From: Oligoflexia bacterium
Lineage (GTDB): Bacteria; Bdellovibrionota; UBA1018
Direction of reading: 5' to 3'
DNA: 64,000 nt
Assembly: GCA_963758495.1 (NCBI GenBank)
Contig: CAVWVI010000004.1
Coordinates: 1,043,184 to 1,107,183, forward strand
The position numbers were made by a program, and so were the translations under genes. Of the stretch, positions 37,247 to 48,634 are shown one piece after another; position 1 is the first letter of the stretch, and the number at the start of each line of letters is the position of its first letter. The notes under the pieces are model-generated. The model did not search any database. It had not been told where the DNA came from and worked only from the letters and a program-made list of their open reading frames with translations.

Positions 37247-38218
37247 TTAACCTCTCACCATCTCCAGTATGGCATTTCGAATTCCATTCGCACTGATTCC
37301 ATAGTGCTCATAAAGATCCTCAGGATAACCTACTATTGCCCATTGATCTTGAATTCCTAATCTACGAAATGGCGTTTTTAATCCTTCCTCAGCCAAAACC
37401 TCTGCAACTGCTGACCCTAAACCACCGATAATTGAATGCTCTTCCACTGTAATAATTCCACCCGTCTCTTTTGCCGCCGCGATAATGACGTTTCTATCTA
37501 AGGGTTTAATGGTGTGCATATCCACTAACCGCACTCCGATTTTTTCATCTAATTGCAAAAATTCCGCAGCTTCTTTACCCCCTTCAACACCCACCCCACA
37601 AGCGATGACGGTCACGTCTTTTCCTTCATGAAGGATATTTGCTTTCCCTATTTTAAATTCAAACTGGTCATTCTCATAAGCCGGAAACTCAAATCCTCTT
37701 CCCAAGCGAATATAAGCGGGGCCTTTAAAGTCAACGAGTGCTCTCACCACTTGTGCTGTCTCAAAACTATCTGCCGGCACAAGGACAGTCATGTTTGGAA
37801 AAGTTCGCATAATAGCGATATCCTCTAAACAATGATGTGTTGTCCCTGCTTGACCAAAAGAAAGTCCCGAATGAGTTGCCATGATCTTCACGTTAGTTTC
37901 CTGATAACAAATATCGGTTCGAACTTGCTCACAAGCTCTCATTGCAGCAAAAGCACCAAAAGTAGCAACAAAGGGATGCTTACCCCCCAATGACATTCCA
38001 GCCGCAACTGTCATGAGTGTTTGTTCCATGATACCAAAATTAAAATAACGATCAGGATAAGTCTGAACAAATTCTTTCATTTTAGTGGATTTCACAAGAT
38101 CAGCAGTCAAAAAAACAATCTCAGGTCTTGTTTGAGCAAGTTGAGTCAGCACTTTGCCATAAATCTCAGCTTGAGTCAGTTCATCCAGGGTATCCACATT
38201 CCAAGTGAGTCCTTCCAT
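37247..38218 (-). CDS. Transketolase C-terminal subunit (split type)
   Basis: ADL..S, GI.EQ, RACEQVR, THH..ED, YIRL.R, TVEEH...GGLGSAVAE. Confidence 0.92.
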   Translation of the reverse strand: MEGLTWNVDTLDELTQAEIYGKVLTQLAQTRPEIVFLTADLVKSTKMKEFVQTYPDRYFNFGIMEQTLMTVAAGMSLGGKHPFVATFGAFAAMRACEQVRTDICYQETNVKIMATHSGLSFGQAGTTHHCLEDIAIMRTFPNMTVLVPADSFETAQVVRALVDFKGPAYIRLGRGFEFPAYENDQFEFKIGKANILHEGKDVTVIACGVGVEGGKEAAEFLQLDEKIGVRLVDMHTIKPLDRNVIIAAAKETGGIITVEEHSIIGGLGSAVAEVLAEEGLKTPFRRLGIQDQWAIVGYPEDLYEHYGISANGIRNAILEMVRG

Positions 38219-38220
38219 AC

Positions 38221-39114
38221 TTAACTCCTCTTTAGCTTCCCTAACTGTTGATAAGCTCGGATTGTACTTTCATAATTCTGATCAAGATCAGCGAGGGCCT
38301 TTTTTTCTAACTCTGTATCCAAACCCCCATAATGCCAAGTCACAGAGTTCTCCATCCAAGGAATTCCCTTTCCTTTGATGGTATTCATCAAAATAGCTGT
38401 GGGCTTACCTGCCTGAGGGTCTGGCAGTGTATAGAGACTTTCTAATATCTCAGTCATCTGATGCCCATCTATTTCCGTGACCTTCCAACCAAAAGCTTCC
38501 AATTTTGCTCGTAAAGGTGAAAGCTCCATAATCTCCGAAATGGGGCCGTCCTGACTCATCTTATTATAATCAATAAGAGCTACTAAATTTCCAACTTTGT
38601 GATGACTAGCCGCTAAAAAAGCTTCCCAGTTACTTCCTTCACATAGTTCTCCATCACTCATGAGAGTAAAAACTCTCTCCATACGTAGATCCATTTTTTT
38701 CGCCAGTGCGATACCCAAGGAGAGACCTAAACCATGCCCTAAGGAGCCGGTACTGGCTTCAACACCAACGATTTTTTTATGATCTGGATGAATTCCAAAT
38801 GGGGACCCTGTTTGGTTGAAGGTTTCCATTTCTTCGATGGGAAAGAACCCTCGATCGCCCAGTACTAAACAATATCCAACTCCCGCATGTCCCTTAGAAA
38901 GAATAAAGACATCCCTGTCTGGTTTTTTAGGATTTTTCGGGTCAATATTTAAATAATGATAATAAAGCGCCACTACCATTTCCATCATGGAGAAACTACC
39001 ACCTATATGAGCGCCTCCAATTTTCCCGGTCAGTTGAATTAACTTCCGCCTGAGTTCGTAAGACTTATATTCGAGCCGAGTAATAAGGTCCGGAGTAACA
39101 GATTTTTTGTTCAT
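38221..39114 (-). CDS. Transketolase N-terminal ThDP-binding subunit
   Basis: HIGG, LSKGH, STGSLGHG, SDGE..EG..WEA...D.N, TIKGKG, WH. Confidence 0.92.
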   Translation of the reverse strand: MNKKSVTPDLITRLEYKSYELRRKLIQLTGKIGGAHIGGSFSMMEMVVALYYHYLNIDPKNPKKPDRDVFILSKGHAGVGYCLVLGDRGFFPIEEMETFNQTGSPFGIHPDHKKIVGVEASTGSLGHGLGLSLGIALAKKMDLRMERVFTLMSDGELCEGSNWEAFLAASHHKVGNLVALIDYNKMSQDGPISEIMELSPLRAKLEAFGWKVTEIDGHQMTEILESLYTLPDPQAGKPTAILMNTIKGKGIPWMENSVTWHYGGLDTELEKKALADLDQNYESTIRAYQQLGKLKRS

Positions 39115-39542
39115 CGAATGACCAGATGCCCCATTCCTAATCTTTCTAAAATGACAGGATAAATCCGAAAGGAGGGACGAATAATAGGAATTAACTGCAA
39201 AGCCTTAGTAATGCTTCCTTTGGCTGAAACTTGCCTCTTAGCGAGGGCAGCAATCACATTTTCTTTTCCTTGCCAAAAGCGATTAGAAAAATCCGCTGAT
39301 TGTTTAAAGGTAACATCTGGAACTAATAGAGTCTCACCCCACGTGATCTTGGCCGAAACATCTGCATCACTTATTGAATTTTTTAGGTCGATAGTAATTT
39401 GAGCATCTGGGTCAGTATATTGAAATTGAACGATCATCTTGGCACGATCCAATTTTGGGCCAATGATTGGATGACTCAATACTTCTTTGATGAATGAATT
39501 AAATACGCTTTCGAGCTCTTTTGAATCTTTAAATAACCCCAT
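39111..39542 (-). CDS. SCP2 sterol/lipid-binding domain protein
   Basis: PDVT...SAD....FWQGK.N...AL....V.AKG.I..AL.L; probable start 39542 (the ORF-track extension lies in the repeat). Confidence 0.78.
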   Translation of the reverse strand: MGLFKDSKELESVFNSFIKEVLSHPIIGPKLDRAKMIVQFQYTDPDAQITIDLKNSISDADVSAKITWGETLLVPDVTFKQSADFSNRFWQGKENVIAALAKRQVSAKGSITKALQLIPIIRPSFRIYPVILERLGMGHLVIR

Positions 39543-39563
39543 GTTTGATGTCCTTTTTATTGT

Positions 39564-39661
39564 AAGTAGTTCCTTTAGGGCTGTTGACAAGCACTGCAAG
39601 GAGTCCTGTTGCGCCGTAAAGATTTGGATTCCCGGCGCAACAGGACTCCTTACAGTGCTTA
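39564..39661. repeat. Intergenic hairpin repeat (REP/MITE-like), copy 2
   Basis: 28-bp stem with one mismatch, 16-nt loop TAAAGATTTGGATTCC. Confidence 0.9.
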
Positions 39662-39665
39662 TGAT

Positions 39666-40022
39666 TTATTCGGGCCAAATGACTGCAGAAATCGCATCCA
39701 AGCGCATAATATCTTCCTGACTTCCCTTAACTTGCAGCTCGCCCGATAAATATTTTTGAGTTGGATTTAAATCGCCCCAAAACATGTCGCAGAAAATTTC
39801 ACTCGTAGAAGAAATAATAATATCAGCTACTTCAGCTTTTCCAATATGAGCTTCGATAATTTCACCTTCCACGACCCTCATTATAAAATCCTGTTGAGTA
39901 TCATTTGCATGAAACTGTACTACCTTGGACCAATCTCGATTCATTTTTCGCAATCGCATATTTCCATTAGAAAGTTTCGTATATTCATTCAATGCTTCCA
40001 TTACTTCATTTTGATCAGCCAT
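39666..40022 (-). CDS. SCP2 sterol/lipid-binding domain protein
   Basis: ADI.I.....F..MF.G.LNP...YLSGELQVKG...D.MRL. Confidence 0.85.
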   Translation of the reverse strand: MADQNEVMEALNEYTKLSNGNMRLRKMNRDWSKVVQFHANDTQQDFIMRVVEGEIIEAHIGKAEVADIIISSTSEIFCDMFWGDLNPTQKYLSGELQVKGSQEDIMRLDAISAVIWPE

Positions 40023-41283
40023 GGGTAATACCTTTCTCAATTGTACTCATGCTCATTTCCAGAGCGTTCAAAATAAACTCTACATCAAGCGGTTGAATGA
40101 CTAACGTTGGCATAATTCTCATCACACTAGAATCATTTCCAGAAAAAACTGCGATCACTCCATTTTTAGAAAGCTCAAAACTCATCCTAGGTCCAAGACT
40201 CTCGTTTGAATATTGAAGCCCCATCATCAGTCCCTTTCGACGATATTCTTTTAGAATCTGAGGGAATTTCATTCTCAACTTTTGAAATCCACTTTCAAAA
40301 AGGGTCCCCATTTGAACAGCATGTTCCCAGAGACGATGGTCTTCAATATACCGAATGACTTCTAACGCTACCGCGCAACCTAAATCTGCTCCTCCAAAAG
40401 TTGAAAAATGAATAAATGGATTTGTAAAAATGAAATCTTGATATTCTTCCTTATAAACTGCTGCTGTAATGGGATAAATTCCTCCTCCAAGACTCTTACC
40501 GACTGTCATGATATCTGGAATCACTCCATAGTTTTCCATAGCGAACATTTTTCCTGTTCGTCCCCAGCCAGTTTGAATTTCATCGGCAATGAGCAACACA
40601 TTTTTTTGATCACAAAGCTTCCGAACCCCTGGAAAATAAGCGTCGGGTGGAATAATAATGCCCCCTTCCCCAAGGATGGGTTCTAAAATAACACAAGCAG
40701 TGTGATCATCGATAGCTTGCGCCATTGCATCCAGATCACCAAACGGCACTCTTTGAAATTCTGGCATTAAGGGTCGAAATGGTTTTTGATAAGCATCTCG
40801 TCCAATACCCGAGAGAGCAAACCCTGTATGCCCATGGTAGCCTTTTTCAGCCGATATTACCTTGGTTTTCATAGTGTAGCCACGAGCAAGTTTAATTGCA
40901 AAATCATTCACCTCTCCCCCACCACACCCAAAAGTCACACAGCTTAATTGTTTTCCGGGTGAAATAGAGGCGAGTTTTTTTGCTAACTCCACTTTTAATT
41001 CTGAAAAGAATAAAAATCCACCTACATCATAGTGCTCTAGCGCATTCTTTAATGCTTGTATCACCTGTGGATTGCGTCGCCCAACATTAAAGCTCCCTGC
41101 GCCCGTCATGCAATCCAAATATTTTTTTCCAGAAATATCCCAAACGTAAGCACCTTCACGACGATCTTCAATTAAATCAAGACCGGCCGATTTTAAAATA
41201 CGAACTCGGGAGGGATTAATATGCTTTGCGAATTCTTTAAGAACACGTTCTCTATTTTCAGAAGATGAATTTTTAGTCGTCAC
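40015..41283 (-). CDS. Class III PLP aminotransferase (ArgD/PatA-like)
   Basis: G..YLD, GYHG.T, EPI.GEGG, DEIQTGWGRTG, D..T.GKSLGGG, STFGG. Confidence 0.93.
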   Translation of the reverse strand: MTTKNSSSENRERVLKEFAKHINPSRVRILKSAGLDLIEDRREGAYVWDISGKKYLDCMTGAGSFNVGRRNPQVIQALKNALEHYDVGGFLFFSELKVELAKKLASISPGKQLSCVTFGCGGGEVNDFAIKLARGYTMKTKVISAEKGYHGHTGFALSGIGRDAYQKPFRPLMPEFQRVPFGDLDAMAQAIDDHTACVILEPILGEGGIIIPPDAYFPGVRKLCDQKNVLLIADEIQTGWGRTGKMFAMENYGVIPDIMTVGKSLGGGIYPITAAVYKEEYQDFIFTNPFIHFSTFGGADLGCAVALEVIRYIEDHRLWEHAVQMGTLFESGFQKLRMKFPQILKEYRRKGLMMGLQYSNESLGPRMSFELSKNGVIAVFSGNDSSVMRIMPTLVIQPLDVEFILNALEMSMSTIEKGITHG

Positions 41284-41349: not shown

Positions 41350-41943
41350 TTAAGATAGCCTAAATGCCGCAACTGCTCCAAACACACCGCTTCGAATCAT
41401 GGAGACTGCAATTGCAGCAAGGAGAAGCGCGGCAATTTTAGAAACAATGACAGTTCCATCTTTTCCAATAAGTCGAGTGACTTTTTCAGAATTTTTAAAA
41501 ACTATCCATGCGAGAAAATAATTTAAAAGCAATGCTGCGATTGTTACCCAATATCCGAAGCTATTAACTTGAAAAACTAGAGTTGTTATCACCGCCGGTC
41601 CCGTAATGAGAGGAACTGCAAGTGGCACAATCCCTGTAGAACCTGATGGCCGATTCATAGCTTCTGGGCCGCCCACGAGATCAGCAAGTGAAACTAAAAG
41701 CAAAACAAGCCCACCAGCAATTTTAAAATCAAAAAGAGTAATACTTAAATAATGAAAGAGTCCTTCTCCCACAAAAAGAAAAACTAGCGCTACTCCTAGC
41801 GCAACTAACATTGAAGTGTTTACCGTTGAAGCCTTCTTCGATCGACTCAAACCATGGGTCATGTTGATATACAGTGGCAAATTACCAATGATATCCAAGG
41901 CAACAAAAATCCCAATAAACGATAAACCGAAATTTTGCAGCAT
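41350..41943 (-). CDS. MarC family membrane protein
   Basis: IGN.P, F.IAGG, VPLAVPL.TGP, LL.AIAV.M. Confidence 0.9.
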   Translation of the reverse strand: MLQNFGLSFIGIFVALDIIGNLPLYINMTHGLSRSKKASTVNTSMLVALGVALVFLFVGEGLFHYLSITLFDFKIAGGLVLLLVSLADLVGGPEAMNRPSGSTGIVPLAVPLITGPAVITTLVFQVNSFGYWVTIAALLLNYFLAWIVFKNSEKVTRLIGKDGTVIVSKIAALLLAAIAVSMIRSGVFGAVAAFRLS

Positions 41944-42636: not shown

Positions 42637-43692
42637 ATGCTTCAATTTCTTACAGAAGCCAAAAATAATTTGACCAAAACCGATCTGAAAAAACAGAAAC
42701 ATCCTTTCACAACAAATTTTGATGGTTTGGGTGCTTGGCTGAGTTCAATCGAAGACTCTGGGGAATTTATTGGAATTCGATTTGGTCGAATCAAATCAAC
42801 ACAAAATGAACCGGAATGGTTTTTCTTACCTCATAGCCATTTTGATGGAATTGGAGGATTTGCTCATCTCCTAAGAAATCGCGGTTATCCCCATTTGCTC
42901 CAGTTACCTCAAATTAAATTTAAAAAAAGACCTTCCTCCTGTGACCTCATTCAGCATAGCTTGCACTACTGCATATCTCAGTTCAAACGCACTGCCACCG
43001 CTCGCTTAAAAAAGGAAACTCCAATCCATCCCCAAAAAAGTCTATCCTCTCTTCCTGCTCAATCGGTTGCGTGGAAAACTTACAATCGCGCCACTACTCA
43101 ATCACTTCTTTCAAAAGCTCGCGCGAATGGAGTCACTCTAAACTCCTGGCTTCTTACCGCACTGGATCGTGGCATTCGTCATAGTTTGGACCATCCACAC
43201 GGACCTGTTTCCTGGTTAATTCCAGTAAATATGCGGGGAGGGATTCAATTGCCAATGGATACTGACAACCATGCTTCACTTGTAGATATCATAATTTCTC
43301 CCTTTGAACCTGCAGCTGGAATCCACCGACAAATTCACCATAAACTGCATGACTCCAAACATTGGCTATTTTGGCATTTTATTCAAAAAACTGCAGCACT
43401 CGGCGAACGAACCCGACAAGCTATTCTTCGAAAAGCACAGTCTCACTCCAAAAGAGAATGGCTAGGTTCATTTTCAAACTTGGGTGCTTGGAATTTACTA
43501 CCTATAGACGGGGGAGCCCAAACAAATGAGGATTGGTTATTCTGCCCTCCCGTTGCTAAAAACCTTCCACTAGGAGCAGGCTGTGTCAGCTTCAACGGAA
43601 AACTTTCTCTCACCCTTCAAATCCACCCTGATTACGCTTCGAATCCGAAAACTGCGGAGTCCTTACTCAATCATTGGATGAATGAGTTATAA
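42637..43692 (+). CDS. CoA-dependent acyltransferase (HxxxDG; condensation/PapA5-like fold)
   Basis: HSHFDGIG, GVTLN..L, PVNMR, FSNLG. Confidence 0.72.
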   Translation: MLQFLTEAKNNLTKTDLKKQKHPFTTNFDGLGAWLSSIEDSGEFIGIRFGRIKSTQNEPEWFFLPHSHFDGIGGFAHLLRNRGYPHLLQLPQIKFKKRPSSCDLIQHSLHYCISQFKRTATARLKKETPIHPQKSLSSLPAQSVAWKTYNRATTQSLLSKARANGVTLNSWLLTALDRGIRHSLDHPHGPVSWLIPVNMRGGIQLPMDTDNHASLVDIIISPFEPAAGIHRQIHHKLHDSKHWLFWHFIQKTAALGERTRQAILRKAQSHSKREWLGSFSNLGAWNLLPIDGGAQTNEDWLFCPPVAKNLPLGAGCVSFNGKLSLTLQIHPDYASNPKTAESLLNHWMNEL

Positions 43693-48550: not shown

Positions 48551-48634
48551 AGGCTGTTGACAAGCACTGCAAGGAGTCCTGTTACGCCGTAAAGATTTGA
48601 GTTTCCGGCGTAACAGGACTCCTTGCAGTGCTTA
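48551..48634. repeat. Intergenic hairpin repeat (REP/MITE-like), copy 3
   Basis: Perfect 28-bp stem 48562-48589/48606-48633, 16-nt loop. Confidence 0.92.

Follow-up and report, generated by a model that had tools for sequence, protein, structure and literature searches.

A conserved operon of an aminotransferase, two SCP2 proteins and a split transketolase in an Oligoflexia bacterium, and its candidate role in breaking down lipophilic amino-alcohols

The 64,000-nucleotide stretch of Oligoflexia bacterium DNA analysed here (the window; assembly GCA_963758495.1, contig CAVWVI010000004.1) carries a row of five minus-strand open reading frames (ORFs) between positions 41283 and 37247. It belongs to a genome of 3.66 Mb, in which the operon lies on the contig labelled C4. 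In gene order, the row encodes a class III aminotransferase (AT1), two stand-alone SCP2 proteins (SCP2a and SCP2b) and the N and C subunits of a split transketolase (TKN and TKC; Table 1). The junctions are an 8-bp overlap (AT1/SCP2a), a 123-bp gap (SCP2a/SCP2b), a 4-bp overlap (SCP2b/TKN) and a 2-bp gap (TKN/TKC). No sugar kinase, isomerase or transporter is encoded within the row, and its GC content, overall and at third codon positions (GC3), matches that of the flanking housekeeping genes. An earlier note, made from the letters alone, had described five co-oriented genes with three tight junctions and a hairpin between the SCP2 genes, had named the products as above and had remarked on the absence of sugar kinase, isomerase and transporter; ORF calls, junction measurements and Pfam matches bear this description out. 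The association of these genes is beyond chance, since the same order is found in a relative (G019) and a metagenome contig (L068), and clustered orthologues occur in another phylum. Together they are a conserved, cross-phylum and uncharacterised module, probably for lipophilic amino-alcohols.

Table 1. Features at the operon and immediately upstream of it (positions within the window)
Feature	Position	Strand	Basis
AT1, class III pyridoxal phosphate (PLP) aminotransferase, 422 aa	40015..41283	-	PF00202 (Aminotran_3) E 1e-88
SCP2a, stand-alone SCP2 after AT1, 118 aa from ATG	39666..40022	-	PF02036 E 2e-7
REP-like palindromic repeat between the two SCP2 genes	39589..39660	.	inverted repeat
SCP2b, stand-alone SCP2, 143 aa from ATG	39111..39542	-	PF02036 E 2e-5
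TKN, split transketolase N subunit, 297 aa	38221..39114	-	PF00456; 6yak E 7e-69
TKC, split transketolase C subunit, 323 aa	37247..38218	-	Transket_pyr/Transketolase_C; alignments to 6yaj and human transketolase
MarC/NAAT membrane protein	41350..41943	-	PF01914; 66 bp upstream of AT1

Of 40 relatives, two (G019 and G010) carry AT1, at about 70% identity; the others have paralogues of 40% or less. G010 carries the first three genes up to a contig end. A search for the transketolase C subunit in 250 other genomes of the host phylum gave no matches, and the unit is rare there. Outside the phylum, AT1-like genes were found in 26 of 301 sampled Desulfobacterota genomes, the transketolase in 14 and both in 13, a co-occurrence of 13 in 14 among kin that are not independent. 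Eight Desulfobacterota loci share the order AT1, SCP2a, a second aminotransferase (AT2), an APC permease, TKN, TKC, a 258-aa SCP2-like protein and a second permease, with orthologues at 55-61% (AT1) and 55-59% (SCP2a) identity. Alanine dehydrogenase lies downstream in seven of the eight and a TetR gene upstream in six. An SCP2-type gene adjoins the transketolase in all 13 Desulfobacterota carriers examined, which argues for a long hydrophobic tail on the substrate; the SCP2 label of the 258-aa protein comes from a Pfam E value of 6e-4, an hhalign probability of 26% and its atlas neighbours. A scan with an SCP2b alignment yielded 38 loci, 10 of them with SCP2b-TKN-TKC, from Bdellovibrionota, Acetothermia, Fraserbacteria and other lineages, three of the ten being near-identical organisms. 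A Chloroflexota sample gave a transketolase match in 1 of 301 genomes, on the canonical side of the tree, and viral contigs gave one weak match. SCP2, aminotransferase and transketolase genes are thus kept together across phyla, and the loss of linkage that the earlier note had named as telling against its idea was not seen.

TKN and TKC have the makings of a split transketolase: adjacent N and C genes, a thiamine diphosphate (ThDP) motif and the catalytic histidines. TKN keeps the equivalents of Escherichia coli H26, H66, H100 and H261, with altered loops beside H100 and H261. When TKC is aligned to 6yaj and human transketolase, it keeps the equivalents of S385, H461, H473 and R520. Of the residues expected in a housekeeping sugar-phosphate enzyme, Ser385, His461 and Arg520 are therefore present, so the phosphate site partly remains, but Asp469 (GEDG motif) is replaced by Ala124 and Arg358 by Ala17. 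In canonical transketolases, D469 binds the 2-hydroxyl of the acceptor and R358 its phosphate. The Asp469 equivalent is absent from all QAG-type (18 of 18) and NGG-type (13 of 13) sequences, and that of Arg358 from 18 of 18 and 10 of 13, respectively.

Enzyme engineering indicates what such changes can do. The E. coli variant D469A has a propanal/glycolaldehyde activity ratio of 0.20, up from 0.04, and the S-selectivity of the wild-type enzyme is reversed to R by D469Y (PMC3657141). Activity on aromatic aldehydes benefits from substitutions at R358 and D469 (PMC7661550, PMC5073344). A natural split transketolase with Leu in place of Asp, pQR2809, gave the best pentanal yield and was still S-selective (PMC13663882).

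The gene neighbourhood also differs with this residue. Among 80 loci, an SCP2 or class III aminotransferase gene lies within 5 kb of 11 of 20 Asp-less transketolases and of 0 of 60 that keep the aspartate; these loci come from one transketolase-seeded metagenome scan that includes several short contigs, the 11 contain one identical pair, and the search for SCP2 used our own queries only. Over all long loci, the same contrast is 26 of 32 versus 0 of 29, part of the first set having been fetched through SCP2b or AT1. In a quick tree of 68 rows, which took 20 of the 60 canonical rows, all but two Asp-less rows split from the canonical ones (SH-aLRT 99). The host genome has two other transketolases, one full-length and above cut-off and one split with the aspartate, so the operon enzyme is not needed for housekeeping.

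AT1 scores 298 bits against PF00202 (cut-off 30.5) and has the PLP lysine and Asp/Gln cofactor residues of class III aminotransferases. Its cofactor and 2-oxoacid residues (K263, D234, Q237, E206 and R389) are invariant across 52 orthologues. It resembles putrescine aminotransferase and PigE models yet scores under every curated cut-off shown, the best NCBIfam score being 358 bits versus 612. It is assigned neither to the putrescine aminotransferase PatA (NF008570/TIGR03372; 358 versus 612 and 311 versus 659) nor to the acetylornithine/ornithine aminotransferases ArgD/RocD (TIGR00707, 309 versus 410; TIGR01885, 240 versus 378). The closest solved structure by sequence is PatA/YgjG (4uox, E 4e-87), whose cofactor and 2-oxoacid residues AT1 keeps; AT1 differs in having Ala62 for a pocket Phe and His152 for the Lys after the YHG motif. 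AT1 belongs to a large family: of 7999 scored matches, 1546 reach E 1e-90. His152 stands at what we take to be the position of the arginine that binds the ornithine carboxylate.

Related aminotransferases occur in other arrangements. Tandem paralogues about 37% identical to AT1 (L150:2180-3400 and L230:7457-8707) have Gln or Glu in the PLP-lysine column of the alignment and are possible non-catalytic partner subunits. Another paralogue (35-44%) is paired with a DUF6206 protein in eight loci (L152, L207, L209, L210, L212, L228, L229 and L232).

Both SCP2 proteins score above the PF02036 cut-off. SCP2a is unusually conserved: the 17 sequences compared, from two phyla, share 44 invariant columns and are 52-78% identical. 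Its atlas clusters carry the SCP2 name. The predicted model of SCP2b (pLDDT 91) matches the SCP-2L domain of human MFE-2 (1ikt) at a Foldseek E of 2e-6. SCP2b is found in two contexts, either directly upstream of the Asp-less transketolase type or inside a glycyl-radical-enzyme cluster, the latter in 24 of the 38 scanned loci.

This second cluster (L018-L044 for the 24 loci, with L150 and L265-L267) is known here from Chloroflexota and Desulfobacterota. Its genes encode PadR, an extended short-chain dehydrogenase/reductase (SDR), an SDR, a glycyl radical enzyme (PFL2-type, GCVE motif), a two-subunit CoA transferase, MmgE/PrpD, an acyl-CoA dehydrogenase, SCP2b, an aldehyde dehydrogenase (ALDH) or aldehyde ferredoxin oxidoreductase (AFOR), and FadD. 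It is present in 23 of the 301 Desulfobacterota genomes, 14 of them with AT1-like genes, and lies directly upstream of the two aminotransferases in L150. A role as substitute for the transketolase was ruled out, as the two co-occur (9 of 14 carriers) instead of alternating. A different glycyl radical enzyme of 997 aa, together with Zn-alcohol dehydrogenases, precedes a second Asp-less split transketolase in L260:2324-9969 and L262.

The most specific clue to the substrate comes from a locus in which AT1 is replaced. FumI of Sphingopyxis sp. MTA144 (6hbs), a class III PLP enzyme, acts on the sphinganine-like chain of hydrolysed fumonisin and transfers its 2-amino group to pyruvate; excerpts of its description mention no transketolase (PMC3136697). 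Locus L257 (genome G093) carries alanine dehydrogenase, an SCP2-like gene, a FumI-like aminotransferase, TKN and TKC of the same motif type as in the operon, and a further SCP2-like gene. Its aminotransferase is 25% identical to AT1 and has FumI as closest solved relative (6hbs, E 4e-98), a replacement that points to sphinganine-like backbones. AT1 itself is of another subfamily: 6hbs, which represents the GSA-aminomutase-like branch, is not among the 60 PDB matches listed for it, and the FumI substrate has a C1 methyl. FumI-like genes also adjoin six loci of a sister Asp-less transketolase group (L090, L100, L101, L108, L112 and L136), several with peptide-type ABC transporters. This group alone has Tyr at position 469, where the operon enzyme has Ala, and its loci are candidates for the continuation of fumonisin-type or sphingoid catabolism. 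In other related Asp-less loci, a Zn-alcohol dehydrogenase takes the place of the aminotransferase upstream of the transketolase. Judging from these replacements, several entry enzymes may converge on a 2-ketone that the Asp-less transketolase would cleave.

The direction of the pathway is suggested by genes outside the row. At G000:C3:1510559-1511926, the host encodes an unlinked APC permease that is 42-44% identical to the two Desulfobacterota operon permeases. In a set of 41 genomes, the orthologues of this permease coincide exactly with those of AT1, both being confined to G000 (the host), G010 and G019. The host genome also encodes an alanine dehydrogenase that scores above its cut-off, and ALDH or iron-containing alcohol dehydrogenase genes neighbour several loci. 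Uptake, nitrogen release and a repressor fit catabolism.

It is accordingly about an even call that the operon serves to break down long-chain 2-amino-1,3-diols taken up from outside, the likeliest being sphingoid bases of prey or dead biomass. In such a route, the APC permease would import the amine, SCP2a would hold it and AT1 would move the C2 amino group to pyruvate, with alanine dehydrogenase recycling the alanine and freeing ammonia. SCP2b would present the resulting 1,3-dihydroxy-2-ketone to the transketolase, which would break the C2-C3 bond and release a fatty aldehyde lacking an alpha-hydroxyl. Aldehyde dehydrogenase and beta-oxidation would consume the aldehyde, and the ThDP-bound C2 unit would pass to an aldose phosphate or leave as glycolaldehyde. 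Neither a kinase nor sphingosine-1-phosphate (S1P) lyase would be needed.

Several points weigh against this degradation of sphingoid bases, above all the stereochemistry. Natural sphingoid bases are described as 2S,3R (PMC6148460), and wild-type and split transketolases as giving 3S products (PMC3657141, PMC13663882). By our own application of the Cahn-Ingold-Prelog (CIP) rules, deamination would leave the 2-ketone 3R. A 3R base and a 3S-selective transketolase would require either inverted selectivity or an epimerase, and no epimerase is encoded in the operon; an inversion would perhaps come from the substitutions at position 469, next to H100 and following H261. Loss of Asp469 and Arg358 should also weaken the binding of an aldose-phosphate acceptor. 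No neutral ceramidase was found in the host genome, and we know of no APC permease that carries lipids. AT1 and the FumI type share no more than some 25% identity, and the closest characterised relatives of AT1 (4uox) act on terminal amines. Linkage is also incomplete: 7 of 18 genomes with the closest AT1 matches gave no transketolase match, and 5 of 9 non-Bdellovibrionota genomes with SCP2b beside the transketolase (incomplete genomes) gave no AT1 orthologue above about 40%. Weak PF04734 matches in G175 and G323 were rejected as ceramidases, as their rows resemble amino-sugar operons by eye.

It is possible, though clearly less probable, that chemistry and direction are as proposed and the substrate is another lipophilic amino-alcohol. 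This could be a shorter-chain, aromatic or 3S 2-amino-1,3-diol; alternatively, AT1 and SCP2a would act on terminal fatty amines and the transketolase on a separate ketol. In favour of this are the 3S preference of transketolases (PMC13663882) and the lack of a detectable ceramidase. The APC permeases, along with V4R-domain neighbours, suggest smaller ligands. Six loci (L151, L206, L213, L214, L215 and L217) carry AT1-SCP2a-permease with no transketolase nearby, and Zn-alcohol dehydrogenases occupy the position of the aminotransferase upstream of related Asp-less transketolases. However, the SCP2-type gene next to the transketolase in every Desulfobacterota carrier examined and the FumI-like replacement both speak for a long, sphinganine-like chain. 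Natural aromatic aminodiols are also rare.

Synthesis of sphingoid bases without serine palmitoyltransferase (SPT) is a doubtful alternative. The transketolase would join a fatty aldehyde to a C2 unit taken from xylulose-5-phosphate, and the aminotransferase would turn the ketol into a sphinganine-type base, with alanine dehydrogenase feeding it; a ceramide synthase would then acylate the base. All reactions are reversible in principle, and part of the Desulfobacterota pattern fits: 13 of 14 carriers have no SPT/AOS-family match at E 1e-30, and 10 of 14, versus 92 of 301 in the background, have a homologue (32-42%) of the GNAT acyltransferase that adjoins the SPT-like gene of the host. In five carriers, this GNAT gene lies beside a PAP2_3 gene. 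However, the host and both related carriers have an SPT-like gene, so the operon replaces nothing there and synthesis would be redundant. The host gene, whose best model is NF047600 (488 bits versus a cut-off of 640, hence not formally assigned), is located with the GNAT gene at L160:3177-5590 (G000:C3 about 1160176-1162589). SPT-like genes in 34 of 41 genomes of the host Bdellovibrionota group, including all three operon carriers, suggest widespread sphingolipid synthesis in the group. Furthermore, the permeases and TetR fit inducible uptake, and a canonical transketolase would yield the unnatural 3S series. The GNAT gene, whose product is a putative ceramide synthase, is never inside the operon and is common in genomes that lack it. 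Salvage of imported bases would give the same pattern, so the Desulfobacterota data could be explained either by salvage or by forward synthesis.

SPT-independent synthesis is therefore unlikely in the host genome, where the headline of the earlier note is not supported. The relation to SPT that it had proposed to examine differs between phyla: the operon does not occur in place of SPT in Bdellovibrionota (3 of 3 carriers have the SPT-like gene), and the expected pattern is present in 13 of 14 Desulfobacterota carriers. The reverse option that it had also raised, degradation of sphingoid bases, is the one that finds support in the permeases, alanine dehydrogenase, TetR and neighbouring genes for aldehyde oxidation. 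The losses at Asp469 and Arg358 and the FumI-like replacement add weight to the lipid amino-diol chemistry that the note put forward; what it overlooked is the conflict between 3R bases and 3S-selective transketolases.

Pairs of PAP2_3 and GNAT genes in genomes with no SPT-family match were also observed in their own right (L283:6027-8735, L285, L287, L288 and L293), with TetR upstream in most. The acyltransferase bCerS belongs to the GNAT proteins and Aur1-type synthases to the PAP2_3 proteins. Such pairs possibly serve sphingolipid salvage or synthesis without SPT. Of this, PMC11087976 confirms bCerS as the acyltransferase and nothing further.

Side-chain cleavage of steroids or hopanoids, in which a DesAB-like split transketolase would cut a ketol side chain and an HpnO-like aminotransferase would remove a terminal amine, is very improbable. 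SCP2 folds bind sterols, and AT1 falls in the PatA/PigE neighbourhood, where HpnO presumably lies as well. One split transketolase, DesAB, does cut steroid side chains (PMC12876203). However, cleavage of a hopanoid polyol would need an isomerase and yield an alpha-hydroxy aldehyde, so that Asp469 should be kept. Neither the five-gene row nor the conserved Desulfobacterota row contains a hydroxysteroid dehydrogenase, and APC permeases do not fit. Chance proximity of an ordinary putrescine or ornithine aminotransferase to a housekeeping sugar-phosphate transketolase, to which the best named matches (putrescine aminotransferase and transketolase) would point, is scarcely credible and largely refuted by conservation, given scores under curated cut-offs, the other transketolases in the genome, the well-supported split of Asp-less from canonical sequences, linkage across phyla and His152 at the presumed arginine position.

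Degradation of sphingoid bases can be compared with several known systems. S1P lyase cuts the same C2-C3 bond and gives the same fatty aldehyde (PMC6148460), but it is a PLP-dependent retro-aldolase, cannot do without a C1 phosphate and yields phosphoethanolamine, whereas the proposed route would combine deamination with ThDP chemistry and use no kinase. In the host genome, the one PF00282 protein matched decarboxylase models only. For both transketolase subunits, the best PDB match is the split enzyme of Carboxydothermus hydrogenoformans (6yak/6yaj; PMC7661550), which shares the two-gene arrangement, the catalytic histidines and the ThDP motif; the operon enzyme differs in lacking Asp469 and Arg358, in its changed H100 and H261 loops and in the flanking SCP2 genes. 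The steroid-17,20-desmolase DesAB, likened here by its described function, is a split transketolase that cuts a C2 ketol off a lipid (PMC12876203). No NCBIfam desmolase model matched the operon proteins. The partners of DesAB are hydroxysteroid dehydrogenases, unlike the aminotransferase and SCP2 proteins here. In its working, the proposed route would resemble a FumI step to which a lipid transketolase of the DesAB kind has been added. In prodigiosin biosynthesis, PigD and PigE pair a ThDP carboligase with an aminotransferase. AniP of the anisomycin pathway is a similar case (PMC11387542): transamination accompanies a ThDP-dependent C-C step, and the aldehyde or ketone involved is not a sugar. 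AniP and PigD/PigE are biosynthetic and use 2-oxoacid donors, whereas the operon module comes with permeases, alanine dehydrogenase and SCP2 carriers and lacks tailoring genes. The literature searched (titles and abstract openings) holds no description of this gene set.

Other features of the window and of the compared genomes lie outside the conserved unit. The repeat in the SCP2a/SCP2b gap is a 72-bp palindrome with 28-nt arms (-60 kcal/mol, z -11.8). It belongs to a REP-like repeat dispersed over 63 places in the genome, including, within the window, the copy in Table 1 and others at about 35774 and at 48571-48624. The repeat has no Rfam match and is missing from the equivalent SCP2a/SCP2b junction in two relatives, and a role as operon-specific regulator was ruled out on these three grounds. 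The MarC/NAAT gene is probably not part of the unit, as no MarC match adjoins the operon in L014 or L068. Similarly, a gene at 42637-43692 (+) was rejected as a member because no match lies beside orthologous operons; it encodes a 351-aa protein with no Pfam or NCBIfam match and an HxHFDG motif, which presumably recalls condensation-type acyltransferases. The DnaB of relative G019 (L012:15402-18146) has 914 aa versus 486 aa here, with an insertion that resembles an intein. Contig genes of G050, titled Bacteriovoracaceae (L017, L151 and L152), closely resemble Desulfomonilia loci, so this genome is possibly mis-binned or mis-titled.

Breakdown of sphingoid bases is described as requiring long-chain-base phosphate lyase (PMC6148460). 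If the proposed route is true, deamination followed by ThDP cleavage would be a second exit from sphingoid bases, and would account for the recycling of sphingolipid carbon and nitrogen by predators and anaerobic lipid scavengers. A bolder version, which seems improbable at present, is that bacteria connect sphingoid bases with central metabolism by a second route that is reversible, in which SCP2 assists the aminotransferase and the lipid transketolase is 3R-selective by nature; predators would digest the sphingolipids of their prey through it, and some anaerobes that lack SPT would run it forwards to make bases. The Asp-less split transketolase accompanied by SCP2 provides a gene signature for surveys. 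If the reading is true, the operon would also represent a natural long-chain transketolase-transaminase pair bearing substitutions that engineers introduced by hand, and, if 3R-selective, its enzymes would give the natural D-erythro aminodiols.

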